In this document: piece by piece, positions 14,402 to 50,861 of the stretch
How positions within the stretch are numbered: the stretch's first letter is position 1
Layout: each line of letters begins with the position of its first letter
Assembly (NCBI GenBank): GCA_947626555.1
Contig: CANQSP010000001.1
Span: 42-64,041 of the forward strand
Source of the DNA: an uncultured Clostridia bacterium
GTDB taxonomy: Bacteria > Bacillota > Clostridia > TANB77 > CAG-508
DNA length: 64,000 nt
Direction: 5' to 3'
Translations under genes and position numbers: made by a program
The notes under the pieces: model-generated
What the model was told of the DNA's origin: nothing
What the model saw: the letters and a program-made list of their open reading frames with translations, nothing else
The model's database searches: none

Positions 14402-14560
14402 ATAGACCTCCATTTATAAAGTTAAGTTAAAAATCAACTATATTATAAATGAATAAAATCCTTTATACAACAAAAAATAACATTTTTTTGCAATATTAAT
14501 TTTATATAATATAAAGAATTTTATTTTCAAAATACGGTGTCAGCATTTTACCGAAGAATG

Positions 14561-26600: not shown

Positions 26601-28215
26601 AGAAAATGATAATAAACTTACAAATAGTACAGCTGTTAAAAGAAAATATTATTATATGGTAAAACAAGGAACAGATGATTTTAGACAAGAGATATTTGAC
26701 TATGTGCCAGAAAAAGTTGAATCTAAAGAGTATGTTTCTACAGCAAAAGAATTTGTTGATGCATGTAAATTAAAATCAAGTAGCACAATTTACTTAGAAA
26801 AAGATATTGATTTATCTGAATACGATACAGGAAGTGCTATTGTAACAAATGCATTTACTGGAACAATTGAAGGTCAAAATAATACAATAACAGGACTTAA
26901 ATTACCATTATTTGCATCATTGTCAGGGGCAACTGTTAAAGATTTAATTATAGACGATTCTACTATAATTATAAATAGTACAGATATAGGAGCATTAGCT
27001 AAAACAATGACAGGAACAGAGTTAAATAATATTACTATTAAAGGTTTATTAATGAGTTCTAAAAATAACAAACAAGTGGGTGCTTTAGTTGGTTCTGCTT
27101 ATAACTCAAATATTAAAGATTGCCATGCTATTAATGTAAATGTATTTGGTTCAACTAGAACAGGAGGACTTATAGGATATGCTGTAAATAATTGTACTAT
27201 TGAGGAGAGTACTTCGAATGCAACAGTAACAGCTACAGCTGATGCAGCGGCAGTACTTGTAGGAGAGTGCAACAGTTCAACTATAAAAAATTGCTATGCA
27301 ATTGGAAGTATTAATGTATCTAGTGCAGCAAATTATGCAGGTGGAATTGTAGGCTGGGCTGATGGCACATCTATACATAATAATTATGCTAAAGTTTCAG
27401 TATCTGCAGTTAAGAGTAATTCGGGTGTATTTAGTGGTACTATTAGAAATAAATTTGATGTTCAAAATAATATTGCTATAGCAAACGGACTTTCACATGT
27501 TAATATAGGGCTATTCGATAACGATACTGAAGCAAGTAAAATGAATAGTAGTGATACATTTAAAAATAATTATGAAATAGCAAATGGATTTACAGGTAAA
27601 ACAAGTAGTGCAAGAGGAGTAAAAGCAGAAAAAATTAAATCAATGACAATACAAGAACTTACAAAGGAATTCATGCAAGAAAATTTACATTGGGATGAAA
27701 AAATATGGAACTTGGATTCTCTTGAGGAAGGTGGCTTACCAACATTAAGAAATCACGATCCAAATAAATCAGAGAGTGCATTAATATTAATGAATGAATC
27801 TAATAAATTAGATTCACTAGATGAGTTAAAAGTTAATGATGAAGAAGTTGTGAATACTATTGAAGACACAAACATAGTCGACACTAATACGCTAAATACA
27901 GCAAATGAAATAAATAATACAAATATGCTAAATGAGGCAAATGAGACAAATGAAATAAATAATACGAATGTGCTAAATGAAGCGAGTACGACGAATGAAA
28001 TAAATAATACGAATATGCTAAGTGAAGCAAGTACGACGAATGAAATAAATAATACGAATATGCTAAGTGAAGCAAATACGACGAATGAAATAAATAATAC
28101 AGATATTCTAAATGAAAAGAATACAAACAACATAGTAGATAGCAATACTTTGGAAGAGAAAAGCGAAAATGAAGTAATTAGTGATACAGTTAATAGTATA
28201 GAAACAACTGAATAA
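14638..28215 (+). CDS. giant (4525-aa) multidomain surface protein: signal peptide, cohesin-like domain, two TM helices, type-I dockerin, P/N-rich linker, ~13 tandem ~290-aa modules, HExxH zinc-metallopeptidase (M26/IgA-protease-like) region with GLUG-type Gly-rich repeats, C-terminal 15-aa tandem repeats
   Basis: MKKITFFLITMILSLAVATSVNA signal (probable start ATG 14650); DVNKDGKVDYDD / DINKDGQITIGD Ca-loop pairs; recurrent ...VLKDKP...YDLD module boundaries; WTHENAHLGAF; GGLIGY/GGIVGW/GALVGS repeats; single uninterrupted ORF. Confidence 0.85.
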   Translation: MMENMKKITFFLITMILSLAVATSVNAVENIELKTSKDKVNLGEEIIVSLDLNIENKEETSLYAYTAKLSYDKDVFEVIDESDFEESENWSDITYNKRNNKFALINKKGETDESILKIKLKVRKNATPGNTSITVNSITASDGKKDIPIEGKTVDVMVIKTGLAEGESIPLNKTNEVVEDTSNIEVGKDFSWIAYILIALIIVIFIFTIYYYISSKKRNTSKNKRITIMVASIIILVILLITTIILLTDKKADVNKDGKVDYDDTKDIIEYLLEIKNPQEDENLSDKDINKDGQITIGDVAASTNQATNQDYHANVNGSNNNSNTNGSTNNQSSEANASKPNNPSNSTNPSEPSNPNEPSNPSGSTNPNEPSNPTNPTEPSNPANPNEPDNPDNPNIPSEPTKPDNPNTPSDPTKPDNPNTPSEPTKPEEQYSSVVETTTVSNLTPKKGQEITLDLYIDVTPYTEIEAIEIEGKSYKVTKVEEPSVRIASLVPVKFKAIASNINGGENNHYKVTIQAPTSAGVQDIHITKIELDNGKKVSIDYSVKVDVLKDAPKVNDFYIDDKNEIPEISFNIEDSDGAFKGGKFSITDVDGNVVFVSENIKVGKNTFSANLEDGKTYHYDLVADYDLDHDYFAENIAPNHREEKDFIDDIIEDEEGNLEFTREYNFLSKNMMITPEVSSEDELILSFENGAESYYKVTYVKVNGVEYEVKLENGKYITKLKKGSKGNNTITVESVKLENGHIFTVNQTFSYVYLKDKPTIGDIEVKLEEGNLHVSAPITDQDNTIKSVQVKIKDQNGNVIKTEKLNKNSNNGLYLNDIEIDVSGKYTVEVEVTYDLGNGKENKVSKIYAKNITEPIKATILKEQSSMAEYATRGKKVEAIYTIEDNTEKEVTHITINGVKIPATKLSDEKYKVEFLAPSERPQNGKTTIIASELYYKDEVEPIEVECAFEIEILKSVPTIEDLHINDSREKPEINFVLVDAENAFISGKIIITDENENKVTEIEMSLIDTENGIQTYTLDNIEQGKGYEISIEATYDLDIDRTNNKNEETKIIKTHKFKIEKDYEFTLSDFKFINIENEKVTLQFTSTNKTEYIIEKVEIELNGIRHEYKVIKNGDNYTIEIPLTDINNTRTELTLEEVILSNLKEFNRETDFELFSSLEKQVIFKNKPTATIGNVIVNEEETQIIVSNISIEDTDNALLSDKLTVQLRDINGTVVDSKNISRTDTAVTFDYNKAGDYKVVIVADYDIVDLQNHTNEEIAQSSIITIHIKAEIINSEFNKYPNKKEQMTIKYTIKDNTNKDVTAIYFNDIRVDAVKLGEDLYEVVYIAPTEHGKKSITASELYYGEEEVDVVDKNDEIDVLKDKPIISNFKVVTAGDKPKATFDIIDTDNSFVDGKIIIKNKANDSIKEVIIVKNDTGIITEYELEIDSFEQYEVKLQINYDLDSNILPSQGENDNVGILEQVIEIVEDIQPSKLQINDLKLKEVNEEQETITLEFTSKNPSKHHIAKVKLEGKEEEFYVTYDEASDTYTLVLPYNNGEKETITIEKVILDNDTQDEVILEEKASIELFKTKPTVQELRATYNKETKVISATLLIKDTDNIVTKAYAKVICPDGEEKTQEEVTLENKSGEVTFENITKAGTYKVEILADFNALDGKIHNSETLELEDNVTDEVYVEIKVNAVSTIELSNKYPEKGGTVQVTYNIEDNTDEKITAIEYGATHIANNLEEIDGNYKAILGEEFTAQAGVSTLKITKIHYGDKIIDVTHEGDKIDVLKEKISFNENTFTSTENLEKSTVAFTFDIINPDNAIIDGTASVGESIQNFSKAQNTLIFNVEKNKTLELLIKVNYDRDTNTIVEDENKNVETLTVVKEFSLDEDMEFDITDIYTSKVNTETLQETNTQYFNKGEEFRVNFKTATNSALKVSYVTIGGTKYNAQEINSEANIEEVEGYYAIVKASESEKGVKELNIDSVTLSDGKVITLENKNLKYEILKDKPIINTFNVSNIGTDVNILVDVLDPDDALKETAKVTITDNSNGEELFNSPIIKGTNHYEYKAELNKEYLIKVINGYDLDSNELNVGSENLNVYEELYTQQLLKIEDTAKFSAVHVTVPSIVTDDDENVILTFENVYQSIYDVKEATINGIPYTVTKEDNVYKVVLEKGEKGDNILKFTSVKLSNDSVFEVNRNIKYLYENVRPIAENIEINEVRSEDMVKATFTVNDKDEATEKLYARLYNSNGVQIEETELDKNATEVSFSLPKAYKYSIDILADYDKGNGTNYEKIVIGSKVHEVGPVVEITEFKTEDKKFFEKDEENVKLIYKINTNIDENVRLFRINGVTYDAEKIDTDTYRVLFDGVGNQGGTLTLEVQQIVFEKTMHKLENYYKSTIEVLRQKPEVSQVIAENKDGKFELSFKMKDDDEALTGNINLRILDEEEQVYLEENIQLNDKQYNKIIDNLQFNKDYKIIITANYDLDGDLTGNGNEYTGEQLLEQTIKVENNIEYNFKFSDFGLMTPDMPLAWPGYPLYLQFISTNDSQYKVDSIVLNGVGYKVEEMYGLYMISEYIPEIKSGIQEVKAEKVILSNGKAFDINGEENKAKFEVLRDYPKASILSMTEDTERGKLKIVFQIRDDFNTIKDPTDIKVLIYSSDSDEPYQTKKISIGDTEVELDTPLASEYVIEFLADATVSELMPEYNQLNSKLVEKTFEAKQSTVITEVKPETYYPEKGAIFGVNYKILTLSKKKVVAITINGQRSIVDENGTNTYKACLSANNEAGLMTFTTSTIEFEDGSTVDFKASDQVEVIKELPIITNLTRTDNFDEKSATFTFNVEDPDGIINEGGTFKGSINGQNKDLNIGENSMTFTNLTPNANIEFNVIGTYDLDTNALNSVTGKNDNNHIGDKIFTRQFLFTENNDLYRVTKLETQKNNKQNTYFEKDDEIRLKFNFIWVDDTYVEKAKVNGETYDAYKNGEDYTIVLNKMTDVGIHEIKLESIKLSNGKEIPLKENNIVKIEILKDKPSMSKFSFNDNDKDISLNITILDKDNAIPENNQLDIEVLDENNKNVCSEKLNVGENTVTFNKNDSNRYLIKVIASYDRDTNEIDQNSNEIKNGEIAFENININERKYELKDITNIDVYHFSEDGNVEKTNTIEYSKINSYKETYIVKVEMKSLPSYYGKIEEYRNENGKLVFTLSNENIILYNNDEPTEKCDIVYGTIVGDIATKEDIYSLNDSSPEGLYIPDYNRISKLQGFSTEKHKLYHNLNKLMPFYDSKYLVRDGEKIEKENILNTKLIKEVIPVNKNGEAVIAVSTDDYQNLSSIKVIFDDDEMKKYNIEFNEYYSGIASYIIPELGIEYNYNNYVIKSDARIIKDLKDTISKFNYRTDLDVLTADLDSRIYREYYEDTLKQEFDDFIKKLLVSKNYSVVIESDTYNELIKKDLLSETTLMKWIYAYNYIHRWYSFDIDGLKMSDILVFKGNLLNKPTTIESISQDVLSGNITTYSTGEFYKNKLAQYTGQQDVFEFVKYYVQKYAEDKNIETWYRDNVPGIVVEAQCINKEVQYSLWHNLSINVGKYNKYVLVLLTLPDDAAYIISNPTSILFGSQRTYVQNPKDPVQRAKLQALADSFANDVSKFFSTLSTFVSIEEMNRMSTVHLDTLLTYVDGGTGSRVVQKPLTTQEPFHKNFCEVLNDWTILKGAGAYCGGGSVYFVYEDALRAYSVWTHENAHLGAFQNLLCGGCRNRIIREDMPDGNITQGSGDGGISFNLTYDYDKNALVTTNLTTERINTPEKMKQFYSRLIDTSDFLDYIEAKAFLQLNAEQQAKLCLQVSYPKGSGQYIDGEITKYEKIDKEKIEAMHLDDVHDLWTNQIVMVPGVTERTMTPSLYGGDSIYTRHWYQPYNDNGRADSYSFKWLAFEMIATGGYKEGYRYWYGSNGGKIKNDLQSLRAITKNENMTFEQYKIDRYNKMQNNWENMKFFDATEVQKEYLEALKKDAEENDNKLTNSTAVKRKYYYMVKQGTDDFRQEIFDYVPEKVESKEYVSTAKEFVDACKLKSSSTIYLEKDIDLSEYDTGSAIVTNAFTGTIEGQNNTITGLKLPLFASLSGATVKDLIIDDSTIIINSTDIGALAKTMTGTELNNITIKGLLMSSKNNKQVGALVGSAYNSNIKDCHAINVNVFGSTRTGGLIGYAVNNCTIEESTSNATVTATADAAAVLVGECNSSTIKNCYAIGSINVSSAANYAGGIVGWADGTSIHNNYAKVSVSAVKSNSGVFSGTIRNKFDVQNNIAIANGLSHVNIGLFDNDTEASKMNSSDTFKNNYEIANGFTGKTSSARGVKAEKIKSMTIQELTKEFMQENLHWDEKIWNLDSLEEGGLPTLRNHDPNKSESALILMNESNKLDSLDELKVNDEEVVNTIEDTNIVDTNTLNTANEINNTNMLNEANETNEINNTNVLNEASTTNEINNTNMLSEASTTNEINNTNMLSEANTTNEINNTDILNEKNTNNIVDSNTLEEKSENEVISDTVNSIETTE
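15655..15930 (+). repeat. ~18-bp tandem repeats encoding PSNP(N/T)EP linker
   Basis: ccaagtaatccaaacgaa-type units, in-frame inside giant gene. Confidence 0.7.
27904..28128 (+). repeat. five 45-bp tandem repeats encoding NEINNTNMLSEASTT
   Basis: Near-identical 45-bp units at C-terminus of giant gene. Confidence 0.8.
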
Positions 28216-28330: not shown

Positions 28331-28777
28331 TTATTGGCAATTACAACTATTATTGTTGTCGCACATTTTTTTAGAGCAATTAGACATATAGAATTTCTTT
28401 TCAGCCAATTTATCTTGTACTCCACGAAGAGCTTCTCCAAATCTTTGGAAGTGAACAATTTCTCTTTGACGTAAGAAACGAAGTGGATCTAATACATCTG
28501 GGTCATCTCTACATAAATCTATTAATTTTTCATAAGTTGCTCTTGCTTTTTGCTCTGCTGCTAAGTCTTCTTGAAGGTTTGCAACAGGGTCACCTTTACA
28601 AGCAATATATGCTGCTGTCCATGGGGTTCCAGAAGCGGATACTGGGTATACATCTACACCATGGTCTGTATAATATGCGCCTAATCCTGCTTTTTCTATA
28701 TCTTCAGGACCAACACCTTCTGTTAATTGATGAACTATTGAACCTACCATTTCTAAGTGAGCTAATTCTTCTGTACC
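28331..28777 (-). pseudogene. cotJC: cotJC 3' segment (Mn-catalase-like spore coat protein CotJC, residues ~71-218), separated from its 5' segment by a 5-kb element
   Basis: Translation begins abruptly at HGTEELAHLEMVGSIVHQL... (Mn-catalase signature) with in-frame TGA immediately upstream; no start or RBS. Confidence 0.8.
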
Positions 28778-28919
28778 ATGATGTTGTCAATCATAATAAT
28801 CCTAAAAAAAGTAATACTTTCTATCTATTATTGTCTAAGGAAAAATTACACAATTAAAAGTATCTTTTTTATCACTATTACCATATTATATATTACTATT
28901 TATGAAAGAAGGAGATTTT

Positions 28920-29729
28920 ATGTTTTTTATTCCATCAAATGATAATGCAAATATAGCGGTTTATGAATTAAATCCAAATGCATATAAAACGATAGTTTTA
29001 ATACATGGTTGGCCTTTATCACACAAAATGTTCGAATATCAGCTACCAGATTTAATAAGAAATGGTTATAGAGTTATAAGTATTGATATAAGAGGATTTG
29101 GAAACTCTGATGTAACAAGTGATGGATATAATTATAATCAATTTGCAACTGATTTATATTATGTAATATATGCTTTAAATTTATCAAATTTTGATTTACT
29201 AGGTTTTTCAATGGGAGGAGCAATTGCTACAAAATACATGCAAATGTATAATGGATATGGTGTTAGAAAATTATGCTTATTAGATTCTTCTGTTCCTTCA
29301 TATTCAAAAACAACAAATAATCCATATGGTCAAACAATACAATCTACCAATGATTTAATAAATCTAGGATATAATGATAGACCAGTTTTAAATGAAAATT
29401 TCGGAAATATGTTTTTTTACAAAAGACCTTCTGATGCGTTTAAAAATTGGTTTCAAAATTTAAGCAATAGTGCTTCTGGAATAGGAGAAATGAATTCTTT
29501 AATTGCTCTTAGGGATGAAGATATATTTGATTCGTTAAAATATATTCATATTTCAACAGCTATTTTTCATGGAAAGGAAGATAGAATATGTCCTTTTCCT
29601 ATGGCAGAAATTATGCATAATAATATTCGTTCTTCAATTTTGTTTCCACTTGAAAATGCTGGGCATGGTGCATTTTATGACGTTAAAGATGAATTTAATA
29701 GGTCTTTAATAAAATTTTTAAATTATTAA
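28920..29729 (+). CDS. alpha/beta-hydrolase fold protein (element cargo)
   Basis: HGWPLS oxyanion region, GFSMGG nucleophile elbow, C-terminal His; AAGGAGA RBS before ATG 28920. Confidence 0.7.
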   Translation: MFFIPSNDNANIAVYELNPNAYKTIVLIHGWPLSHKMFEYQLPDLIRNGYRVISIDIRGFGNSDVTSDGYNYNQFATDLYYVIYALNLSNFDLLGFSMGGAIATKYMQMYNGYGVRKLCLLDSSVPSYSKTTNNPYGQTIQSTNDLINLGYNDRPVLNENFGNMFFYKRPSDAFKNWFQNLSNSASGIGEMNSLIALRDEDIFDSLKYIHISTAIFHGKEDRICPFPMAEIMHNNIRSSILFPLENAGHGAFYDVKDEFNRSLIKFLNY

Positions 29730-29801
29730 TTTAATTATGAAAATCCGTACCATAATGTTGTCAATTAAAAAAATTTAGGGCTATTTGCTGTATAAAATAT
29801 A

Positions 29802-30335
29802 AGTTCACTGAGTGTACTTAATGAAATACACTTAGTGAACTTTTTATTTTATGCTTTAATTTTATATTCAACACTTTTTTCTTCTAATAACTTGAAATTA
29901 CAACTTACAAATATGGGGGATACTTTTATAAGTACCCCCTAATTTTTCAGGAAACTCGTTTATAGTTAAACTAAAGGCTCGTTTCTAACCTAATGTTCAA
30001 TAGGATATTTGTTTATAGAATTTTCATTCTAAAGGCTCATATCTAACCTAATGTTTAAATTGCACTTGTTTATGAAGTTAATCAAAGGTTCGTGCTAACC
30101 TAGTTTATTTGATAAATTGCTTTACCAATATTAGTATATTCATTATACTATATTTTATTTACAAAATCAAAACTTATACACAAATTCTAATTCAAAATTT
30201 GTATTCACTTAGTGTATTTTTTTCAATTCATTTAGTGAACGAAATTATTACACCTAGTGAACTTTTCGGTTCATTTAGTGAATTTTAGTACTCTGATAAG
30301 TTTTTTTTAGCAATACATTCGGTGAATTATTGCAT
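29802..30335. promoter_or_regulatory. array of 7 palindromic operator-like sites (consensus TTCACTtAGTGAA) plus three ~50-bp iterons (29957-30112)
   Basis: Sites at 29803, 29827, 30205, 30228, 30252, 30270, 30316; iterons GTTTATnnn...AAAGGCTCGTnTCTAACCTAATGTT x3; 900-bp non-coding tract upstream of recombinase. Confidence 0.5.
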
Positions 30336-30475
30336 CATTTTTGCATAACTTTTTTGCTCACTTCTCAATTCTCTTTGCCTTTTATCTTCTTTGAATTCTT
30401 CTACTGTCCATTTCTTTACTTGTCTTGGGCATTTTTTTGTGTTTATTTTCATAAATTTTAAAGAGGCGATTTAAT

Positions 30476-30613
30476 ATGGTAATAGAAGAATATACGATTG
30501 AAAATACAAAGATAAAATTTTATGATGACTGTATTGTAGCAGATACTGTTACTCAAAAAGAATATATAGATAACATTATTATTAATTTAATACAAAATTC
30601 TCCTTTGTTGTAA
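30476..30613 (+). CDS. small hypothetical protein (45 aa) upstream of recombinase; candidate directionality/regulatory factor
   Basis: AAAGAGG RBS 9 nt before ATG; MVIEEYTIENTKIKFYDDCIVADTVTQKEYIDNIIINLIQNSPLL. Confidence 0.3.
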   Translation: MVIEEYTIENTKIKFYDDCIVADTVTQKEYIDNIIINLIQNSPLL

Positions 30614-30676
30614 TTTGGCATATTTTCTTATATAATGTTTACAAGTTAAAGACAAATTACAAGGAAAGGAGGAAAT

Positions 30677-32239
30677 GTGCAAAATGATGGCACATATGCA
30701 ATATATTTAAGAAAATCAAGAGAAGATATTGAAGCAGAAAAATACGGAGAAGGCGAAACTTTAGCAAGGCATGAAAAGATTTTAACTACTTTAGCAGAAA
30801 AAAGGAATTTACATATTTCAAAAATTTATAGAGAAGTTGTAAGTGGCGAAACAATTAGCGAAAGAAAAGAAATGCAGAAACTTCTTAAAGATGTTGAGAA
30901 TGAAAAATGGACAGGTGTTTTGGTTGTTGAAGTAGAAAGGTTGGCTCGTGGAGATACAGCAGACCAAGGTATAGTATCAAAAGCATTTAAATATTCGCAT
31001 ACAAAGATTATTACACCTGTTAAAACTTATGATCCAGATAATGAATTTGATGAAGAATATTTTGAATTTGGATTGTTTATGTCTAGAAGAGAGTATAAAA
31101 CAATAAATAGGCGTCTGCAAAGAGGTCGTGAGATTTCAGTCCAAGAAGGTAAATTTGTAGGCAATATTGCACCTTTTGGTTATGATAGAGTTAAATTAAA
31201 AGATTCAAAAGGTTATACATTATCTATTAATGAAAATGAAGCACTTATTGTTAAAGAAATATTTAGGTTATATACTTTTGAAAATAATACTATTAGTTCA
31301 ATTGTAAAGCAGTTAAATAATATGAATTTAAAGCCTAGAATTTCTAATGAATGGACGATTTCTACTGTTAAAGAAATTCTTTCTAACCCAACATATATTG
31401 GTAAATTAACATGGAATAGAAGAAAACAAAAAAAGAAAACTAAGAATGGACATATTATAATTTATAGACCACGCAATAAAGATTATTTAATTTATGATGG
31501 ACTACATGAACCTATTATTGATAATAAAACATGGGAATTAGTTCAAGAAAAAAGAAAGCAAAATACTCCAAAAGCAAAGCATAGTTATCAAATTCAAAAT
31601 CCACTAGTAGGACTAGTATTTTGTGAAAAATGTGGAAAGCCAATGCAAAGAAGACCTTATAACAAAGCCAATAAACCTGCAACTCTTATGTGCTCTAATT
31701 CTGTATGTAATAATATAAGTTCTAAACTTTATATTGTTGAAGATAAAATAATTGAAGCTTTGGAAATATGGCTTGAAAATTATAAAGTAGATTATGAAAT
31801 TAAAGACAATTTAAAATCTAATAACAATGAAATAATAAAAAAGTTCATTACTACAAATAAGAAAGAGTTAAAAAAAGAAAATATTAAACTTAATAAAATT
31901 TATGACTTTTTAGAAAATGGTATTTATAATAAAGAAGAGTTTATAAATCGTTCAAAGGCTATTAAAGAGAATATAGAAATTTTAGAAAATAAGTTAAAAG
32001 AGTATAATTCTTTATTGGAAGATAATGCTAAAATAAAAAATGAAAAAGAAACAATGATACATAAACTAAAGAATGTTTTAGATTTATATTATAAATTAGA
32101 AGTAGCTGAAGATAAAAATATTTTACTAAAAAGTATTGTTACTAAAATTACCTATTTAAAAACTAAAAAATCCATAAAAAAGGGTTCTAATCCAACTGAT
32201 TTTGAATTGCATATATATCCTAAAATACCTAAAAGTTAA
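30677..32239 (+). CDS. large serine recombinase (resolvase catalytic domain + recombinase domain + zinc ribbon + coiled coil)
   Basis: GTG start 4 nt after GGAGG; N-term YAIYLRKSREDIEAEKYGEGETLARHEKIL (catalytic Ser region), central recombinase domain, CEKCGKPMQ...CSNSVCNN zinc ribbon, C-terminal coiled coil. Confidence 0.88.
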   Translation: MQNDGTYAIYLRKSREDIEAEKYGEGETLARHEKILTTLAEKRNLHISKIYREVVSGETISERKEMQKLLKDVENEKWTGVLVVEVERLARGDTADQGIVSKAFKYSHTKIITPVKTYDPDNEFDEEYFEFGLFMSRREYKTINRRLQRGREISVQEGKFVGNIAPFGYDRVKLKDSKGYTLSINENEALIVKEIFRLYTFENNTISSIVKQLNNMNLKPRISNEWTISTVKEILSNPTYIGKLTWNRRKQKKKTKNGHIIIYRPRNKDYLIYDGLHEPIIDNKTWELVQEKRKQNTPKAKHSYQIQNPLVGLVFCEKCGKPMQRRPYNKANKPATLMCSNSVCNNISSKLYIVEDKIIEALEIWLENYKVDYEIKDNLKSNNNEIIKKFITTNKKELKKENIKLNKIYDFLENGIYNKEEFINRSKAIKENIEILENKLKEYNSLLEDNAKIKNEKETMIHKLKNVLDLYYKLEVAEDKNILLKSIVTKITYLKTKKSIKKGSNPTDFELHIYPKIPKS

Positions 32240-32317
32240 AGTCTTTGATTATTTTGTTGAATGATAGTAAAAAATATAGTAAAATAAGTAAAATATAATT
32301 TATAAAGGGAGAAAAAA

Positions 32318-32821
32318 ATGAATCAAAATTTATATGAAGAATTAATTAAAAGAAAAAATGGGGGAGAAAAGTTAGATTGGAGCTCTATAACCAAAGAAGA
32401 ATTAGAAAATTTATTTGAAGAACATAGCGACAGTATGATAGCTGAACTATATAATATAACCAAATCACAAGTAATCAATAAAAGGAGAGAGTGGGATATA
32501 AAACAATATAATTATTTATTAAAAAATTTTCTAAAAGATGATAAAAATGATATTTTATTAAAAAATTTAAACCAAGGTTCTAAAGATAGATTATTAAATA
32601 AAAAAAATATAGACACTATTGCAATAGCTTTAACACATTATTTATTTAGAAATGGACCTGTAGAAGATATGCATAGTAGCGGAAAATTATCTCAAAATGA
32701 TATGAAAACGCTTAACAAATTTATGGTAAATAGAATAGCTGGGTTACTACAAACTATAAATAGAGAAGAATGGCTAAAATTAGAATTATTGTTAAATTAT
32801 TATAATACATTTTCTCGGTAA
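32318..32821 (+). CDS. hypothetical protein with N-terminal HTH-like segment (element cargo)
   Basis: AAGGGAG RBS; IAELYNITKSQVINKRREW resembles sigma-r4/HTH; no confident family. Confidence 0.4.
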   Translation: MNQNLYEELIKRKNGGEKLDWSSITKEELENLFEEHSDSMIAELYNITKSQVINKRREWDIKQYNYLLKNFLKDDKNDILLKNLNQGSKDRLLNKKNIDTIAIALTHYLFRNGPVEDMHSSGKLSQNDMKTLNKFMVNRIAGLLQTINREEWLKLELLLNYYNTFSR

Positions 32822-33135
32822 AGATTGGGATAAGCCGGTTGCAGATACAAAAGAAATAGATTTAGAATATAAAAAGTTTTTAGATAAAATTTAATTTACA
32901 GTCAATAAACAAAGTTATAATTTGGTTGGTTTTTGAGGCTATTCCAATTACAAATAACTTATATTTTTAGCTATTGACAACATATTGGTATGCATTCTTT
33001 TGTATCACAATATTGTCAATTTGAAGAATTAAAGGCTTTTGGCTGTAAAATTTTAATAATTTTAAAGAAAAATCTAAGGTTTGATTGAAAAATGCATATA
33101 TATGTAGTACAATGATTTTCGAAAGGAAAGATTTA

Positions 33136-33549
33136 ATGCAAGAAAAAGAATACATAGAAATTGGTAAATTAAATACAGAACTTTTTGAAAAAATTGGTGA
33201 GCATTTAATAACAAATGAAGTTATTTTTACTTATGAGAGAATGAATCATGTTAAAACAAAAAGAGTTCAATTATTTAATGAGGTAAAAGGTATTTTGCCA
33301 GATGTTTTATATAATCCAGATTACATATATAAAGATTGGAACAACAGAAATAATACATTAGTATTGATTAAATCTATAGATGAGAAGTTGAACCTAAATG
33401 TAGTATTAAAAATTGCTATATTAAATGATGATAAGCATACCAAAAATTCTATAATAACTATGATAAAAATAGGTAATAAAACTTTTAACAAAATAAAAAG
33501 AAACAAAAAAGCTAATTTATTATTTGAAAAACTAGACATTTATGAATAA
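33136..33549 (+). CDS. hypothetical protein (element cargo)
   Basis: ATG 33136 after GAAAGGAAAG RBS (ORF track 33085); no recognisable domain. Confidence 0.4.
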   Translation: MQEKEYIEIGKLNTELFEKIGEHLITNEVIFTYERMNHVKTKRVQLFNEVKGILPDVLYNPDYIYKDWNNRNNTLVLIKSIDEKLNLNVVLKIAILNDDKHTKNSIITMIKIGNKTFNKIKRNKKANLLFEKLDIYE

Positions 33550-33790
33550 AAGTTGTATAATTAAAGTACAATATAGAATAGTTATTTGAGGTGGTAAATT
33601 GTGTCAACCACGCACCCTATGGGTCAAAAGAGATGTAGGAAATGATACACCTACCAAATAACTAACAATCGAAAAAAGGGCTATGGAAACATAGCTCTTT
33701 TACTTATTTTACAACATTATAAATTTCTTCAAACACTGCTGGTCTTTTAGAATAGTCTTGTCTTTAGCTATTGACAACATATTGGTACGT

Positions 33791-34013
33791 ATTCTTCTGT
33801 ACCTATATCATTTAAAGTTGCTTTAGAGTTTTGGTCTGGCATTCCGAATCTTTGAGATAAATATCTTAAAGAAGCTGAAAGCTCTCCATCAGGGCCACCG
33901 TATTGAGAAATTATAAATTTAGCAAGTCTTGGATTTGGACATTTTATATTGATAGGATATTGTAATACTTTGTTATAAGTCCACATTAAAAATTCCCCCT
34001 TTCCCATGGCCAT
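33791..34013 (-). pseudogene. cotJC: cotJC 5' segment (residues 1-74) truncated by element insertion
   Basis: MAMGKGEFLMWTYNKVLQYPINIKCPNPRLAKFIISQYGGPDGELSASLRYLSQRFGMPDQ...DIGTEE then reads into element (YVPICCQ*); overlaps cotJB stop as in cotJ operons. Confidence 0.8.
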
Positions 34014-34360
34014 GGTTCTTCAAGCCATCTCCACTTATTACATGGAAAATAGATAGAAAGAGGTCCATAAACCTTTTGATATTTTTCCTTTAAATCTTTA
34101 AGCTTCTTTGAATATTCTTTATGAAGACAAATAGCTCTTTCGTCATCTGGGTGAGTATTTAAATATTCAGAAATATCAACAACAGCGAAATCTAAAGCAC
34201 GAATTTTATTAAGCATTTCATCTCTTTGCATTTGCTTTTCTCCACAATTATTATCATTTTGCATATTAGTAAATTCATAAGAATAAGTTGAAACTGCAGG
34301 TGATTGATTATTTGAAGAACAACAGCAGTTACAATTTCTGTTTTCGCAATCTTCTAACAT
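33986..34360 (-). CDS. cotJB: spore coat protein CotJB with Cys-rich N-terminal extension
   Basis: GGGGAGGG RBS 9 nt upstream; ...MLNKIRALDFAVVDISEYLNTHPDDERAICLHKEYSKKLKDLKEKYQKVYGPL matches CotJB; N-term CENRNCNCCCSS. Confidence 0.8.
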   Translation of the reverse strand: MLEDCENRNCNCCCSSNNQSPAVSTYSYEFTNMQNDNNCGEKQMQRDEMLNKIRALDFAVVDISEYLNTHPDDERAICLHKEYSKKLKDLKEKYQKVYGPLSIYFPCNKWRWLEEPWPWERGNF

Positions 34361-34710
34361 TTGTTACATCCCTCCCCAATAGTATTTGTAGCTTCTATAA
34401 AAGCATTTTCTTCTAATGATTGACAAGGTGAATAAGGATTTACAAGTTCAGGGAAGATTGTTCCCATTTTTAATCCAACACTAGGAGTAAAAGTTTGATT
34501 CATTGTTTGAATTGGAACATAACTTTGACCAAACATTGGATTAGCTGGAAATACAGATGGTGCTTCATCAAATCCACAACCACAGTCATCATTGTCATTA
34601 TTTGCTGAGTAATAATCTGCTTTAATACCACAGTTACTACAAGCAGTTTCTATAATGTCACTATTATAATTTTGCTGACAACAACATTTTTTATATTTGC
34701 AATTATACAT
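34354..34710 (-). CDS. cotJA: spore coat protein CotJA with Cys-rich N-terminal extension
   Basis: AGGAGG RBS; ...SYVPIQTMNQTFTPSVGLKMGTIFPELVNPY matches CotJA core; N-term CKYKKCCCQQNY; overlaps cotJB start. Confidence 0.75.
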   Translation of the reverse strand: MYNCKYKKCCCQQNYNSDIIETACSNCGIKADYYSANNDNDDCGCGFDEAPSVFPANPMFGQSYVPIQTMNQTFTPSVGLKMGTIFPELVNPYSPCQSLEENAFIEATNTIGEGCNKC

Positions 34711-34858
34711 TTTTAATCCTCCTTATTAAGTTGTATAGTACATAATATGTAGTAAAATCAAGAATTGTGTATAAAACGTATAAAAAAAGTCGAATTAATA
34801 ATTTAAAAATATATTAATTAAGGTATAAATATGATATTATAAAAGAGGGAGGTATATA

Positions 34859-35281
34859 ATGAAAAGAATAGTATTTATTATAATAGGGGTATTAGTTATT
34901 CTCTTTGGTATAGCAAATATGTGCATGAATATAGATGCTTTAATGAATTATGAATTGGAATCAAAAAATGTATGGATTACTTCTGAAGTTTATGAAAAAG
35001 GACAAGATTCAATCTATTCATCTTATGTAACATATGATGATCATAATGGAGAACAGGGAATTTTATATACAGATAGCCTTTCAAAAGGAGATATGGTTAC
35101 AGTATATAGAAATAAAAATAGTTATGATAAAAGTGATAGTACAAATGGATGGATATTATCTAGTAGCGGAACAATTGGAAAATCTATATTAGCATTAATT
35201 ATAGATAGTATATTAATAATTATAGGAAGTATTGTATTATATAAAAATGTAAAAAATAAAAATATTAAAGATAAAATATAA
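34859..35281 (+). CDS. small membrane protein (TM - beta-rich domain - TM; DUF3592-like)
   Basis: GAGGGAGG RBS; N- and C-terminal hydrophobic helices. Confidence 0.4.
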   Translation: MKRIVFIIIGVLVILFGIANMCMNIDALMNYELESKNVWITSEVYEKGQDSIYSSYVTYDDHNGEQGILYTDSLSKGDMVTVYRNKNSYDKSDSTNGWILSSSGTIGKSILALIIDSILIIIGSIVLYKNVKNKNIKDKI

Positions 35282-35396
35282 ACGAAAAATGTCGAAATAA
35301 CAAGAAAATTATGTTAATTATTTTTATAATATGTCTGGACTTTTTATTCAATTTGTTATAAAATATAAGATAGACCGTTAAAAAGGAAGGATGTAA

Positions 35397-36698
35397 ATGT
35401 CTAGTATAAGAGATGAATACAAAGTACAAAAAAGTTCTATACAAGAATCTTATGAAAGACAATTAATTTTAAAATTAAATAAAGAATACGAGGATATTTC
35501 AAACAATGCATTTGTTATGATAACAAATTATTTTAAAGAATTATATCCAGAAGTAGTAATCGAAGAACCAAAAGCTAGGGAGAAATCACCTAAAAGTTTA
35601 TATGGAAAAATAAAAAACTTACAAATAGAAAGAATATCAAAATTATTTGTAGTAGGAGAAGTGAAAGATTCTGAAAAAGAAGAACTTTTAAATTTATTAA
35701 TTGAAAGAGTGCACGAACATAAGGAATTAAAACAAAATGTAATAAACTATATACAACAATTAATATATGATGATATAAATGCAATTAACATAGAGGAATT
35801 TTTAGCTAAAGTTATTGAAACAAATTTAAGTGCAAGTACAAAAACAGCATTGCTTAGAATTTTGAAACATAAAGTGGAAGAAAGTAATTTACCAAATAAA
35901 TCAAATATATTGCAACAGTTAGAAAACAAATATGGAAGTACAAGAGCCAAAATTACAGGAAAAGTAGAAGATGACTTACTAAGATATGAAACTATAAATA
36001 TGTTGAGAAATGATGCAGAAAAAAGAGAAAATTTATATGATGTGCAAGATTACTTAAGAGCAAAAGATTTAAGGGGAATGAAAATTGTAATTTGCGATAT
36101 ACCACAGAATTTTCAAACTGAAAATGAAAATTTAAGAAAATTATTAGAACGTAGGGAATTAGCATCAAATCCAGAAATAAAAAAGAAATACAATAATGAG
36201 AGTATAATAGAATTAAGTAAAGAATTTGTAGATAGACTTTCAGCAAATAGTAAACTATTAGAAGCAATGAATGTAGAAGTTATAAAAGATTCAAGAAAGC
36301 ATAAAAATAAAACCAATGGTTATATAGCAGATCATATAAAATTTCAATCTAAAAAAGATAAAACATATTGCTTTGAATTGCAAGTTAAATCTGTATATGT
36401 AGAAGAAATAGCAAAGGGAAATGGAAGTGCATCACACAGTAAAAGACCAGGTAAAGAAAGAGTTTTACCTGTTATAGGTGTGGGCGTAAATTTTATAAAA
36501 GAATTACAATATGTTTTGCCAAAATACACTTTAATAACGCAAAAAGAAGGTACATATATTGCACGAAAATGTTCTTTATTAGAAAATACAAAAATGTTTT
36601 TTCAAAATCAATTAAAGCCAAATACAAAAGAATATGAAGAAGTACAGAATATTATAACTGAATATGAAGAAAATCAGAAAGAAGCATTATTGCAATAA
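35397..36698 (+). CDS. RelA/SpoT-synthetase-fold nucleotidyltransferase (small-alarmone-synthetase-like) with ~150-aa insertion
   Basis: AREKSPKSLYGKIK (G-R-V-K-S motif region), DLRGMKIVICDI, GYIADHIKF...YCFELQVKS...SASHSKRPGK align to RelQ/RelP synthetase motifs; 433 aa. Confidence 0.6.
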   Translation: MSSIRDEYKVQKSSIQESYERQLILKLNKEYEDISNNAFVMITNYFKELYPEVVIEEPKAREKSPKSLYGKIKNLQIERISKLFVVGEVKDSEKEELLNLLIERVHEHKELKQNVINYIQQLIYDDINAINIEEFLAKVIETNLSASTKTALLRILKHKVEESNLPNKSNILQQLENKYGSTRAKITGKVEDDLLRYETINMLRNDAEKRENLYDVQDYLRAKDLRGMKIVICDIPQNFQTENENLRKLLERRELASNPEIKKKYNNESIIELSKEFVDRLSANSKLLEAMNVEVIKDSRKHKNKTNGYIADHIKFQSKKDKTYCFELQVKSVYVEEIAKGNGSASHSKRPGKERVLPVIGVGVNFIKELQYVLPKYTLITQKEGTYIARKCSLLENTKMFFQNQLKPNTKEYEEVQNIITEYEENQKEALLQ

Positions 36699-36781: not shown

Positions 36782-37516
36782 CTATCCTAATTTTATAATT
36801 GCATGGATGTTCTTTTCATCAAAACTTTTTACTGTAACAAAATAATCATTATCAATTAAAGAACACATACATTTTAAAGTGTCTCCTAATTTGGCACTTT
36901 TTTTATACATTATTTCAACATTATTAAAAATACAGTTTTTATAAATGTCATAAGGCAAGGCTTCATAAGCTAGGTCCAAATAATACAAATTATGCATATG
37001 TTCATTAATATCAATTACATGTCTTGGAACAGTATAATTTATAGTATTTAAAAATGAAGAAGGTTTATCTAATTTTGAAAATTCTATTTCATCGAATACA
37101 GATTTATTTTCTGATTCATATTTTGAAATAACATTATCATCTAATTTTACAAGACCTTTATTAATATCAATTAAGGACCATTTAGAAGAGGCTATTGCTT
37201 TAAGTTTTCCATCTTTACCGTACATTTCGAAATCACGGTAAGAGTAAAATTTAAATGGGTTTCTAGACCAAGTATTTACAATAACATCTTCGCCATAATT
37301 TGGTCTATCTATTACTTTTAATTTCCAATGTAATAAAACCCAACTTAAATGAGTTCTTTCAATATCATTAATTCCATATCCCACTTTATCTGAATGAAAA
37401 CTTGCAATATCTTCAAAAAATCCTAAGATTGATTTATTTGATATTTTACAATTTATATCTATATCTTTTAATCCGATTGTATATTTATGCTCAATTATTG
37501 CCAATTTGAAAATCAC
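36782..37516 (-). CDS. acyl-ACP thioesterase (FatA/FatB family)
   Basis: Two hot-dog halves, conserved NxWxRN... pattern (VNTWSRNPFKFYSYRDFEMY); 244 aa. Confidence 0.75.
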   Translation of the reverse strand: MIFKLAIIEHKYTIGLKDIDINCKISNKSILGFFEDIASFHSDKVGYGINDIERTHLSWVLLHWKLKVIDRPNYGEDVIVNTWSRNPFKFYSYRDFEMYGKDGKLKAIASSKWSLIDINKGLVKLDDNVISKYESENKSVFDEIEFSKLDKPSSFLNTINYTVPRHVIDINEHMHNLYYLDLAYEALPYDIYKNCIFNNVEIMYKKSAKLGDTLKCMCSLIDNDYFVTVKSFDEKNIHAIIKLG

Positions 37517-37755: not shown

Positions 37756-38659
37756 ATGTTTATAAAACAATATATAAATTGCGAAATATGTCCGCATAAA
37801 TGTAAAGTAAATAGATTAGAAGGTAAAATAGGAAGATGTAAGTGTAATGATAAAATAAAAATAGCACTTGCATCTATACACATGTATGAAGAACCATGTA
37901 TAAGTGGTAAAAATGGTTCTGGGACGGTATTTTTTTCTAATTGCAATATGAATTGTAAATTTTGTCAGAATTATGAAATAAGTCAAGAGTCAAAAGGATA
38001 TGAAATAGAAATAGAAGATTTAGCTAAAATTTTTTTAGATTTACAGAATAAAGGTGTAAATAATATAAATTTAGTAACACCTACAACGTATGTATATCAA
38101 ATTATTGAAGCAATAAGAATCGCAAAAGGGGAAGGGCTTGAAATACCTATTATATACAATTCTAATGCATATGAAAGAGTAGAGACCTTAAAGGACTTGA
38201 AGCGGGTATATAGATGTCTATTTACCAGATTTAAAGTACTTTTCTGAAGAGATGGCAAAAAAATATTCTAATGTAACAAATTATTTTGAAATGGCAACAA
38301 AGGCAATACAAGAGATGATTAATCAAGTAGGTGCTCCAAAATTTGATGAAAATGGAATTATACAAAAGGGGGTTATGATAAGACATTTAGTTCTTCCAAA
38401 TCATATATTAAACACAAAACATATTTTAAAGTGGATAAAAGATAATATAGATGAAAATGTGTATGTGAATGTTATGGCACAATATTTCCCAACATATAAA
38501 GCAAAGGAAGATGAACTTATTAATAGAAAATTAACTAGAAGAGAGTATAATGAAGTTCAGGAATATTTTTATTTGCTAAATTTCAAAAATGGATATATGC
38601 AAGAGTTGGGAGAACATGAAGAAGAATATGTGCCAAATTGGGAATGCTCAAGCATATAA
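37756..38659 (+). pseudogene. radical SAM activase-family gene (PflA-like, CxxxCxxC) with +1 frameshift (inserted C at 38203)
   Basis: CNMNCKFC cluster; ORFs 37756-38247 and 38252-38659 are one gene: deleting C38203 gives ...TLKDLKGYIDVYLPDLKYFSEEMAKKYSNV... Confidence 0.75.
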
Positions 38660-38776
38660 AAATACATAAAGAAAAATGTCGAATTTTGCTTGTAAAAGTA
38701 AAGTGATTGTGATAAACTTACCGTGTAAATTTTTAATAACTTTTATAACATTATTATGTTAAAAGGAGGGAAATGT

Positions 38777-39928
38777 ATGCGGTCAAGAGTGATAGCATCA
38801 ACAAAGGTAGGTTATGAACTTCCTATCGAGGAAGCAATCGAGTTTTCAGGCAAAGAAGCGGGTATTTGCTATATGCCTGATACGGTGGACGAGATTTTTA
38901 ACGAGCCGACAGAAAAAACGATGAAAAGGGTTATGGGAAACATGGCGTCTAACCATCATAGTGTGTTTGGACATGTTAGGTATAACTTTGTATTTGAGGA
39001 TATTCCGAAAATATTAGCTATGTTTCTTAATAACGAGAAGGTATACGACACTTCTGAGAAGTCGGCAAGGTTTACTAAAATGAAACCTTCAAAAGACGAA
39101 AAAGAGCTGTATGAGAAGTGGATTGAAATTTTTAAAATTCGTATACATGAGTTGTATCCTGACATCAAAGAAAGGCAATTAGGGAGACTTGCCCAGGAAA
39201 ATGCACGCTATTTAATTAGTGTATTTACGCCGGCAACGGTCATGGGCTATTCGGTTACCTTTCAACAGTTCAGCTATATTCTTCATTTTATGGAGGATTA
39301 CATTCAAAAAGAGGAAGATACAGAGTTTAATAAGTTGCTTAAACCGTATTTACAGGAATTTGTGGATATCCACGCTAAATTTAAAGTGGAAGGAATTAAC
39401 CCAGATTCCAAAAACAGAAAGCTTGCCTTATTTTCAAAGGTACGAAGAAAAGAAGAATGGGGAGAAAATTATTGTTGCAACTATTTAGCAACATTTTCTC
39501 AAGAAGCACAAGGAATGCGTCACAGAACAACGAAAAATGAAATTTATGAGTATTCTTTGTATTCAAATCTGTTTTTCACACCTCCTTGCATTAGAGGAAC
39601 GGCGTTGGAGGAAAAGTGGTTAGATGATATTAGAAGTCTTTCCAAGAATTTCCCGCAGGGAAAGTTAGTTCTTGTTAACGAAAGAGGTTCAGTAGAAGAT
39701 TTTGTGCAAAAATGCAAGGAACGCTTATGCGGATGTGCACAGCTTGAAATTGCACTTCAGACAAAGAGAACTTTAGAAGAATATTTAAGAAATACAAAAG
39801 AAACAGATGAAAGAGTATACAACTACCTTTTACAGTATGCAAATGGCGCAAGGTGTACGTTCCCAGATTATACATGTAATAAGCCTTGTATCTGGGGAGC
39901 CAAAGGTGCGTTTGAAAGGTTAGTGTAA
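38777..39928 (+). CDS. ThyX-like (flavin-dependent thymidylate synthase family) protein, divergent long paralog 1
   Basis: HHSVFGH (cf. HExxxEH), SEKSARFTKM (cf. SxxSxRY), ENARYLISVFTPAT (cf. ARxxLP) but RHR replaced by NNEK, RHR found ~180 aa downstream; ATG 38777 after GGAGGG. Confidence 0.5.
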   Translation: MRSRVIASTKVGYELPIEEAIEFSGKEAGICYMPDTVDEIFNEPTEKTMKRVMGNMASNHHSVFGHVRYNFVFEDIPKILAMFLNNEKVYDTSEKSARFTKMKPSKDEKELYEKWIEIFKIRIHELYPDIKERQLGRLAQENARYLISVFTPATVMGYSVTFQQFSYILHFMEDYIQKEEDTEFNKLLKPYLQEFVDIHAKFKVEGINPDSKNRKLALFSKVRRKEEWGENYCCNYLATFSQEAQGMRHRTTKNEIYEYSLYSNLFFTPPCIRGTALEEKWLDDIRSLSKNFPQGKLVLVNERGSVEDFVQKCKERLCGCAQLEIALQTKRTLEEYLRNTKETDERVYNYLLQYANGARCTFPDYTCNKPCIWGAKGAFERLV

Positions 39929-49667: not shown

Positions 49668-50861
49668 ATGAAAGTTAGAGTATTAGCATCAACAAAATTA
49701 GGTTATGAATTACCAATAGAAGAAGCTATTAAATTTTCTGGAACAGAGGCAGGAGTTTGTTATATGCCAGATGATATTGACGCACTTCTTAATGAAGATG
49801 AACAAAAAACAAATAAAAGGGCATCAATGACAATGAGTTCTGGACATCATAGCGTATTCGGACATAGCAAATATAATTTCGCTTTTGAAGAAATTCCTAA
49901 AATATTAGCAATGATTCTTAACAATGAAAAAGTATATGATACTTCAGAAAAGTCAGCGAGATATACAAAAATGAAACCTTCAAAGGAAGAAGAAGCATTA
50001 TATGAGAAGTGGATTGAGTTATATAGTAAAGAGATAGATAAAATATATCCACCAATAAATACTGAAGGCAAAACTGAAGAAGAAATAGAAAAAGCTCAAA
50101 AATCTAGAAGTACAGCTATAAGAAAAAAAGCCCAAGAAAATGCAAGATATCTAATAAGCGTATTTACACCAGCTACTACAATGGGCCATACTATTGATTT
50201 AAGGCAATTTAGCTATATATTGCATTGGATAGATGATTTTGTGAAAAATGCAGAAAATACAAAGTTTAATGAACAGTTAAAACCAATACTATCTGAATTT
50301 GTAAATATGTGTGAAAAATATAAAATAGATGGAATTAATACTGATGTAAAACATAGAAAACTTTCATTATTTACCGATATAGAAAGAGAAGACGAATGGG
50401 GAGAAAATTATTGTACTACATACATTGGAACGTTTGCAGAACTTGCACAGGCTCAAAGGCATAGGACTATTTCTTATGAAATGAGTTTATTACCAGAACC
50501 ACAATTTTTTGTTCCACCAATTATAAAAGGTACAGAACTTGAAAATGAATGGCTAAAAGATATTTCTTCATTAGCAGATAGATTCCCACAGGGTATGTTA
50601 ATAAAAATAAATGAAAGAGGAACAGTGGAAAATTTTGTACTTAAGGGTTATGAACGTTTATGTGGAGAGGCACAATTAGAAATTGCACATCAAACAGATG
50701 AAACAATGAAAAAATATTTACAGAATACAAAAGACGTTAAACCTAGAGTATATGATTATTTAAAACAATATTCAAATGGTGCAAGATGCACATTTCCAGG
50801 GTTTAAATGTGTAAAACCATGTATATGGGGCGCAAAAGGTGCTTTAAATAGAGTATTTTAA
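49668..50861 (+). CDS. ThyX-like protein, divergent long paralog 2 (~60% identical to 38777-39928)
   Basis: Same motif set (HHSVFGH, SEKSARYTKM, ENARYLISVFTPAT, late RHRT). Confidence 0.5.
   Translation: MKVRVLASTKLGYELPIEEAIKFSGTEAGVCYMPDDIDALLNEDEQKTNKRASMTMSSGHHSVFGHSKYNFAFEEIPKILAMILNNEKVYDTSEKSARYTKMKPSKEEEALYEKWIELYSKEIDKIYPPINTEGKTEEEIEKAQKSRSTAIRKKAQENARYLISVFTPATTMGHTIDLRQFSYILHWIDDFVKNAENTKFNEQLKPILSEFVNMCEKYKIDGINTDVKHRKLSLFTDIEREDEWGENYCTTYIGTFAELAQAQRHRTISYEMSLLPEPQFFVPPIIKGTELENEWLKDISSLADRFPQGMLIKINERGTVENFVLKGYERLCGEAQLEIAHQTDETMKKYLQNTKDVKPRVYDYLKQYSNGARCTFPGFKCVKPCIWGAKGALNRVF

Follow-up and report, generated by a model that had tools for sequence, protein, structure and literature searches.

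A divergent RelA/SpoT-type synthetase subfamily with an inserted helical domain, encoded beside cotJABC in uncultured gut Clostridia

Is the open reading frame (ORF) at 35397..36698 (+) of contig CANQSP010000001.1, from an uncultured Clostridia bacterium, an alarmone synthetase, what is the long segment between its catalytic motifs, and does the gene have anything to do with the spore genes next to it? We addressed these questions in a stretch of 64,000 nt of this contig (hereafter the window, whose numbering we use). A sequence-only reading had proposed that the protein has a stand-alone RelA/SpoT-synthetase fold with a large insertion, and profile-level evidence supports this proposal. We conclude that the gene represents a previously unannotated, strongly divergent subfamily of RelA/SpoT homologue (RSH) synthetases. 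Its homology to RSH proteins, its retained set of catalytic residues and its chromosomal context without a partner gene are established. From the sequence, we judge the protein to be an active nucleotide pyrophosphokinase of the RSH superfamily, most likely an alarmone synthetase and possibly tied to sporulation, with a probability of roughly 0.55.

The ORF proved to be real and complete, with an ATG start, a ribosome-binding site (AGGAAGGA) ahead of it at 35384-35391, and a translation of 433 aa. Every motif string named in the sequence-only reading was found in this translation: AREKSPKSLYGKIK at residues 59-72, DLRGMKIVICDI at 224-235, GYIADHIKF at 308-316, FELQVKS at 326-332 and SASHSKRPGK at 344-353. 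The distance between the first two motifs, estimated earlier at ~150 aa, is 152 residues between K71 and D224, and across the family this spacing has a median of 153 and a range of 137-231 residues. The equivalent residues of S. aureus RelP (SaRelP), K88 and D107, have 18 residues between them (numbering of PMC5794853). A domain scan of the protein found no hydrolase, TGS or ACT domain, in agreement with what had been read from the letters.

Scans of the single protein against Pfam, NCBIfam and PADLOC returned nothing relevant, even at E ≤ 1. Weak matches to PhnJ and PARP14-RRM fell under the cutoff and were absent from the homologs, and were set aside. A word-indexed search of 5.8 billion proteins recovered 106 homologs, nearly all of 400-460 aa and 30-76% identical, which are unnamed or ‘hypothetical’ in public records. 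When the RelA_SpoT model PF04607, suggested earlier as a check, was compared with the 70 sequences of our family alignment and profile (A1), 14 of them matched at E ≤ 0.1, the best at 1.1e-6. P0063, P0087 and P0093 scored 27.5-29.3 bits, with a gathering score of 27 bits, and the P0087 match spans profile positions 24-99 of 113. The lack of a RelA_SpoT match, which the sequence-only reading had named as an outcome that would speak against it, thus holds for the single sequence, and it is the profile-level evidence that recovers the homology.

An exhaustive HMMER search with A1 among 1.84 billion representatives retrieved only 102 proteins and did not reach canonical RSH proteins directly; the link required a sister clade. 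This clade made up the weaker A1 matches and comprises proteins of 295-350 aa with the same motifs and an ordinary spacing between the first two synthetase motifs (Syn1 and Syn2) of ~20 residues. The profile of the sister clade, which lacks the insertion (A2), matched B. subtilis Rel (6yxa, 9.1e-10), Rel_Seq (1vj7, 3.3e-9), S. aureus Rel (7oiw, 8e-8), RelP (6fgk, 1.9e-7), T. thermophilus Rel (2.4e-5) and E. coli RelA (5iqr, 2e-4) in the PDB. These matches cover both halves of the active site (Syn1/Syn2 and Syn3-5). A1 and A2 in turn aligned by hhalign with a probability of 100% (E 2.6e-44) and one clean gap at target residues ~82-215. Once the insertion columns were removed from the family profile (A4), its top PDB match was RelP 6fgk at E 0.0059, and RelQ/RelP and Rel/RelA were the only solved structures reached by sequence profiles. 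Searches of the PDB with the protein (phmmer) and with the full family profile (hmmsearch) gave spurious weak matches only (glucocorticoid receptor, annexin). The AlphaFold2 model of the whole protein has a mean predicted local distance difference test score (pLDDT) of 93.7 and a predicted template modelling score (pTM) of 0.90. In Foldseek it ranked the small alarmone synthetase (SAS) structure SAS1 5dec (probability 0.98), Rel and SpoT at the top of the PDB, with non-significant E-values, and matched nothing in BFVD.

On this sequence evidence, remote homology to RSH synthetase domains is solid. The motifs that first drew attention are not chance matches, since they coincide with invariant columns of a family of ~100 proteins and match the RSH synthetase motifs of solved structures position by position. 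The main text of an RSH classification (PMC7229694) contains no such family, although its supplementary subfamily lists may hold an earlier description. Because the family is invisible to Pfam, NCBIfam and PADLOC, inventories of alarmone synthetases in gut Clostridia would miss it.

The protein divides into the following parts, given with window coordinates, strand and basis.

35397..35567 (+), residues 1-57: N-terminal helices before the first catalytic strand (model secondary structure; aligns to the sister clade)
35568..35645 (+), residues 58-83: Syn1, a strand and basic helix with P58, R61, K63, S64, S67 and K71 (invariant or at least 90% conserved)
35646..36050 (+), residues 84-218: lineage-specific all-alpha inserted domain (gap in the A1-A2 hhalign alignment)
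36051..36116 (+), residues 219-240: Syn2, a strand with the Mg-binding D224 in DLRGMK (alignment to RSH motifs)
36117..36281 (+), residues 241-295: expanded helical segment from Syn2 to the G-loop (model and alignment)
36282..36476 (+), residues 296-360: Syn3-Syn5 (columns invariant or at least 90% conserved)
36477..36698 (+), residues 361-433 and stop: C-terminal module of a beta-hairpin and helices (model, alignment and conservation)

The invariant columns of A1 are R61, K63, K71, R154, G180, D224, K305, G308, Y309, A311, H313, E327, R350, K353, R355 and P375. They include D224 and E327, the catalytic acidic residues whose presence the earlier reading had asked to see confirmed. Syn1 holds the ATP-phosphate-binding set R-x-K-x3-S-x3-K, which aligns to gRpKhiySiyrKm of Rel structures and has a spacing identical to R78/K80/S84/K88 of SaRelP (PMC5794853); R61, K63 and K71 are invariant and S67 is at least 90% conserved. 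Syn3-Syn5 contains the basic run H302, K303 and K305, the G-loop residues N307, G308 and Y309, then H313, the catalytic E327, Q329 and H347, and finally R350, K353 and R355. This region aligns to kaNGYQSiH...iEiQIRT...AAHW of Rel_Seq 1vj7. Within the G-loop pattern K-x-N-G-Y-x-S-x-H, K305, G308, Y309 and H313 are invariant and N307 is at least 90% conserved, and the Ser position is taken by Ala311. Y309 is the counterpart of SaRelP Y151 and B. subtilis RelQ Y116, the Tyr that stacks on the acceptor base. Combining the residue roles described for SaRelP (PMC5794853) with our alignments gave the following correspondences.

R61: SaRelP R78, adenine stacking
K63: SaRelP K80, phosphate binding
S67: SaRelP S84, alpha-phosphate contact
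K71: SaRelP K88, phosphate binding
D224: SaRelP D107, Mg2+
Y309: SaRelP Y151, G-loop, acceptor base
E327: SaRelP E174, Mg2+
H347: SaRelP H190, ribose

All eight positions are invariant or at least 90% conserved, and so are H313 and Q329. Two donor-side positions differ from RelQ/RelP: the adenine-stacking Arg (R112 in SaRelP) is K229 in the target and in most members, R in some and Q in long outliers, and at the place of the third basic residue (R91) the target has N74, next to K73.

A conserved basic cluster (H302, K303, K305, R350, K353, R355) surrounds Tyr309. In alarmone synthetases such a patch beside the G-loop Tyr is reported to be large, whereas FaRel2, which modifies tRNA, has a much smaller one (PMC11782079). 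Because the cluster of the target is large and conserved, as in alarmone-producing SAS and unlike FaRel2, the comparison lends modest support to a free nucleotide over tRNA as acceptor. We therefore picture a single-domain pyrophosphokinase that would move the beta,gamma-pyrophosphate of ATP onto the 3'-OH of an acceptor. This acceptor would most likely be a free purine nucleotide, the product being a (pp)pGpp-type or, less likely, a (pp)pApp-type alarmone.

The target shares with RelQ/RelP (SAS1/SAS2; 5DEC, 6FGK, 6FGX) the stand-alone synthetase domain without HD, TGS or ACT domains and the basic cluster by the G-loop Tyr. With these proteins and with long Rel/RelA (1VJ7, 6YXA, 5IQR) it shares the five motifs in the same order. 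It is unlike RelQ/RelP in its length (433 aa versus roughly 200-230 aa), in its ~135-aa all-alpha insertion and in the expanded helical segment between Syn2 and the G-loop. That segment is common to the sister clade and shorter in a 399-aa subgroup. The C-terminus also differs: where RelQ/RelP have a four-helix bundle for oligomerisation into a homotetramer (SAS C-termini are described in PMC11782079), the target has the beta-hairpin and helices, in which P375, Y377 and N397 are conserved. This module, with its P-x-Y...EN pattern, is again common to the sister clade. The members of that clade (for example P0149, P0139, P0152, P0171 and P0177) are likewise unannotated. They have the same motifs and, like the target, are chromosomal genes in housekeeping surroundings with a sigma-A-type promoter and no partner gene. 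In contrast to the target, they have no inserted domain and do not lie beside cotJABC.

We next consider the insertion itself. Since canonical RSH proteins and the sister clade both have a short Syn1-Syn2 spacing, the segment was inserted in the target lineage. It comprises ~135 residues, is acidic (pI 5.2, versus 9.5 for the core), and carries the invariant R154 and G180 and a conserved motif, S145-TKTALLRIL. Modelled alone, it forms a helical bundle with a pLDDT of 86.9 and a pTM of 0.80, and comparison of this bundle with the PDB yielded no fold match (best E 3.4, TM ≤ 0.31). With a confident model and no match among solved structures, the predicted domain is novel. It sits between the phosphate-binding helix of Syn1 and the Mg-binding strand of Syn2, both of which belong to the pyrophosphate-donor site (PMC11782079). 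From this topology, the domain may be a built-in regulatory or substrate-gating module at the ATP-donor side, and R154 may contribute to the active site. Control of the ATP-donor site is a known theme among toxic SAS (toxSAS) enzymes (PMC11782079; PMC7229694). In the literature consulted, RSH regulatory modules are N- or C-terminal or are separate antitoxins, and no description places one within the synthetase domain itself. The accessory parts change most quickly: the median identity to the window protein is 0.35 in the insertion and 0.27 in the C-terminal module, compared with 0.48 in the core. For cis control of access to the donor site, the sister clade, which lacks the insertion, is a natural comparison.

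Where is the gene found, and in what company? A scan of one genome per species gave 38 loci, all in metagenome-assembled genomes of uncultured gut Clostridia (rabbit, mouse, human). No relatives of the family were found among phage genomes, plasmids and IMG/VR contigs, and we rejected an origin in a mobile element for this reason. The window has 24-33% G+C and a strong coding-strand skew. It carries core chromosomal genes (adk, map, rpsK, rpsD, rpoA, rplQ, pyk, ffh, rpsP, rimM, eno, dxs and pyrG) together with spore genes, namely cotJA, cotJB, cotJC and a gene for a SleB-like hydrolase. The cotJ genes upstream of the target are arranged as follows.

34354-34710 (-): cotJA (Pfam CotJA, 6e-12)
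33986-34360 (-): cotJB (Pfam CotJB, 1e-25)
33792-33986 (-): 5' part of cotJC, after cotJB

In nearly all of the related loci whose sequence includes the upstream flank, cotJA-cotJB-cotJC lies immediately upstream of the target gene and divergent from it. At the loci that are 76% identical in the target, the cotJ operon is co-directional and a DHH gene lies in between. On the other side of the gene in the window, the acyl-ACP thioesterase noted earlier was identified at 36782-37516 (-) by PF01643 (3e-20). In 19 loci a convergent thioesterase gene of this kind occupies the 3' position; 7 loci have a RecX-like ORF there, and the rest have various genes, among them one for a U32-like peptidase of ~816 aa in 3 loci. 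We found no conserved co-directional partner gene across the related loci. The small membrane protein that had been proposed as upstream neighbour exists in the window as a 140-aa ORF with hydrophobic N- and C-termini (34859-35281, +), co-directional with the target and 115 nt from it. As a conserved partner it did not hold up: tblastn found it in 0 of 44 related loci, including those that are 76% identical.

Compared with the window, the target in these loci (L001-L044) is 32-76% identical, the N-terminal part of CotJC 86-96%, Ffh 88-98% in 6 of the 7 loci where it was found, the radical SAM protein 61-97% and the thioesterase 49-81%. The target thus evolves fast relative to its neighbours. 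Its divergence shows a moderate rank correlation with that of the thioesterase, radical SAM protein and Ffh (rho 0.57-0.78) and none with that of CotJA or CotJB, which is weak evidence of vertical descent. Within one clade of uncultured, spore-forming gut Clostridia, the gene probably belongs to the core genome and is inherited vertically.

The sister-clade genes have surroundings of their own. In L050 and L045 they lie between Peptidase_U32 and Methyltransf_3/BipA genes. More broadly, those in L045-L047 and L050 adjoin a Methyltransf_3 gene and BipA, and the one in L050 directly follows Peptidase_U32. These neighbours resemble tRNA-modification genes. All contigs that carry P0149 end within ~170 nt upstream of it, which suggests a repeat at that point.

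To look for regulatory signals, we compared 35 unique intergenic regions between cotJA and the target gene; the kinship of these sequences inflates the counts given below. The window has these elements.

35336..35364 (+): candidate sigma-A-type promoter TGGACT-17 nt-TAAAAT, with the -35 at 35336-35341 and the -10 at 35359-35364
35309..35318 (+): TTATGTTAAT, a conserved block that precedes the -35 by 18 nt
35290..35296 (+): TGTCGAA, identical to the Spo0A-box core and 39 nt ahead of the -35
34788..34794 (+): second box copy (AGTCGAA), between cotJA and the inserted ORF that is specific to the window

The promoter pattern T[GA]GAC[ATC]-17-TATAAT was present in 28 of the 35 regions. Within the window such promoters are not above chance (19 sites versus 19.7 expected), and only the comparison across loci carries weight. 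In 21 of the 28 promoter-bearing loci, a TTATGTWAAT block stands 18-19 nt upstream of the -35. The 0A-box core is TGTCGAA, contacted at G2, C4 and G5 (PMC3485338). TGTCGAA occurs in 3 copies in the 64 kb, which is not above chance. Across the orthologous regions, however, the strict form [AT]GTCGAA was found in 15 of 35, compared with a mean of 0.42 and a maximum of 3 after shuffling. The boxes lie 29-30 or 39 nt upstream of the -35, distances that are one helical turn apart. In the window, the 140-aa ORF is bounded by two similar AAAAA[A/T]GTCGAA segments, which suggests that it was inserted into the cotJA/target control region with duplication of the 0A-like box. Readings of a GAAAATT half-site as a CodY box and of the TGGACA -35 as a SpoIIID site were considered by eye and dropped, the matches being poor or explained by the -35 itself. 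An Rfam scan at the target gene found no riboswitch or other RNA element.

The sigma-A-type promoter in the region shared with the cotJ operon would transcribe the target gene. Given the conserved Spo0A-box-like element in this region, the enzyme may be switched on at the entry into sporulation. An effect of a SAS on spore accumulation has precedent in C. difficile (PMC11317968). Judged from the sequence, a link of the enzyme to the onset of sporulation is plausible but unproven. A more far-reaching version, in which a Spo0A-controlled RSH synthetase, gated by its novel donor-side domain, acts as a second-messenger switch at sporulation onset, is a speculative idea that we consider improbable. 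If it were true, the product of the switch, (pp)pGpp or an undescribed nucleotide, would couple nucleotide pools to spore and coat development in uncultured gut Clostridia. The adjacency to cotJ and the candidate Spo0A box do provide a testable link between alarmone-type signalling and sporulation, with tests in heterologous hosts because the organisms, known from metagenomes only, are uncultured.

Several points weigh against an alarmone synthetase tied to sporulation. The acceptor cannot be read from the sequence, since toxSAS that are specific for tRNA or adenosine have the G-loop Tyr as well, and the placement of the insertion relative to the active site is drawn from topology only. The genomes are fairly closely related, so the cotJ synteny and part of the intergenic conservation may reflect shared ancestry instead of function, and the synteny alone is weak evidence of a functional tie. 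The 0A-like box, flanked by two divergent promoters, could belong to cotJ or bind another regulator, and about half of the loci lack it or have a degenerate version. Upstream of the sister-clade genes, which also have a sigma-A-type promoter, neither a 0A-like box nor the TTATGTWAAT block was found.

Among the alternatives, the one that survives best, unlikely as we hold it to be, is an RSH-fold enzyme with changed chemistry or substrate. Such a sporulation-specific nucleotidyl- or pyrophospho-transferase would use the insertion to supply a site for a non-canonical small molecule, or for a spore or coat protein. The conserved linkage to cotJABC fits this idea, as do the invariant R154 and G180, which suggest a functional surface on the insertion, and the donor-site substitutions of R112 to K/Q and R91 to N. 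The clade is also isolated, with 102 representatives and no direct reach by HMMER to canonical RSH proteins. However, all residues that serve ATP binding, Mg coordination and acceptor-base stacking in (p)ppGpp synthetases are kept, and genome relatedness can explain the synteny. To our knowledge, there is no precedent for protein or non-nucleotide substrates of RSH synthetase domains.

Slightly less probable still is a self-contained toxSAS that, like CapRel, would be of a fused toxin-antitoxin or defence type. Its catalytic domain would pyrophosphorylate the 3'-CCA ends of tRNA or make (pp)pApp, and the inserted domain or the C-terminal module would hold it inactive until a trigger, for example a phage protein, released it. 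The target does resemble the toxSAS (FaRel, FaRel2, PhRel, PhRel2, CapRel, Tas1) in its predicted single-domain RSH synthetase fold with accessory helices near the active site, and a single gene without a separate antitoxin fits a fused architecture. By its topology, the insertion is at the ATP-donor side, where the antitoxin domains of toxSAS act (PMC11782079). The insertion and the C-terminal module are the fastest-evolving parts (0.35 and 0.27 versus 0.48), and the whole target diverges faster than its neighbours (32-76% versus 49-98%), both as this explanation would have it. Yet the gene keeps a fixed chromosomal position by cotJABC in all genomes and does not occupy variable islands. Unlike toxSAS, it has no conserved bi- or tricistronic partner, no match in PADLOC and no relatives in phages, plasmids or viral contigs. 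The PDB sequence matches included Rel, RelP and RelA but no toxSAS structure, and, as in alarmone makers, the G-loop Tyr has the large conserved basic cluster beside it.

That the protein is a catalytically dead structural or regulatory descendant of an RSH enzyme would account for its high divergence and the unmatched Pfam model, but this is very improbable, as ~100 sequences with only 30-45% identity elsewhere have kept the complete catalytic set unchanged, a signature of selection on catalysis. Finally, we give almost no credence to a two-gene toxSAS toxin-antitoxin module with ORF 34859-35281: the two ORFs are adjacent and co-directional in the window, 115 nt apart, but we rejected the pairing because the 140-aa ORF is unique to the window (none of the 44 related loci has it) and no conserved partner exists there or downstream, while elsewhere cotJA is directly upstream and divergent, and the target has its own conserved candidate promoter between the two ORFs. 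An active RSH-type pyrophosphokinase, most likely making an alarmone, remains the reading that we prefer.

Other features of the window were recorded as well. cotJC is split, with residues 1-65 encoded at 33986..33792 (-) and residues 62-209 at 28777..28334 (-), and an element of ~5 kb (about 28778-33793) lies between the two parts, within the region 28334-34013. The element carries the following genes and RNA.

28902-29729: alpha/beta hydrolase
30677-32239: large serine recombinase
32318-32821: ORF
33085-33549: PBECR2-nuclease-like ORF
33581-33662 (+): skipping-rope RNA (Rfam RF02924, 74.7 bits, E 3e-16), just 3' of the PBECR2-like ORF

The direct repeat TTCTTCTGTACC is found at both junctions of the element, and immediately inside lie the inverted TGTTGTCAAT/ATTGACAACA. 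CotJC also breaks at residues ~65-69 in L009, L011, L014, L019, L020 and L035 and at ~80 in L005/L006, and several of these loci have a serine recombinase near the broken cotJC. The whole resembles a skin-like intervening element for which cotJC holds a recurrent insertion site; the intervening-element literature we retrieved does not mention this gene.

A giant ORF (14638-28215, +) of 4525 aa separates a DHH/DHHA1 gene (13418-14413, -) from the 3' part of cotJC. Its only domain matches are weak ones to dockerin, GLUG and MG2, and it presumably encodes a huge surface or adhesin-type protein. Further downstream, the radical-SAM gene is present as two adjacent ORFs in different frames (37756-38247 and 38252-38659, +; 163 and 135 aa). 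The same split occurs in the 76%-identical loci L001 and L002, and L005 has a single gene of 257 aa; the split could reflect a conserved site of frameshifting or recoding, or two genuinely separate genes. The window also holds two long Thy1/ThyX-like paralogs of 390 and 397 aa, encoded ~10 kb apart at 38756-39928 and 49668-50861 (+).

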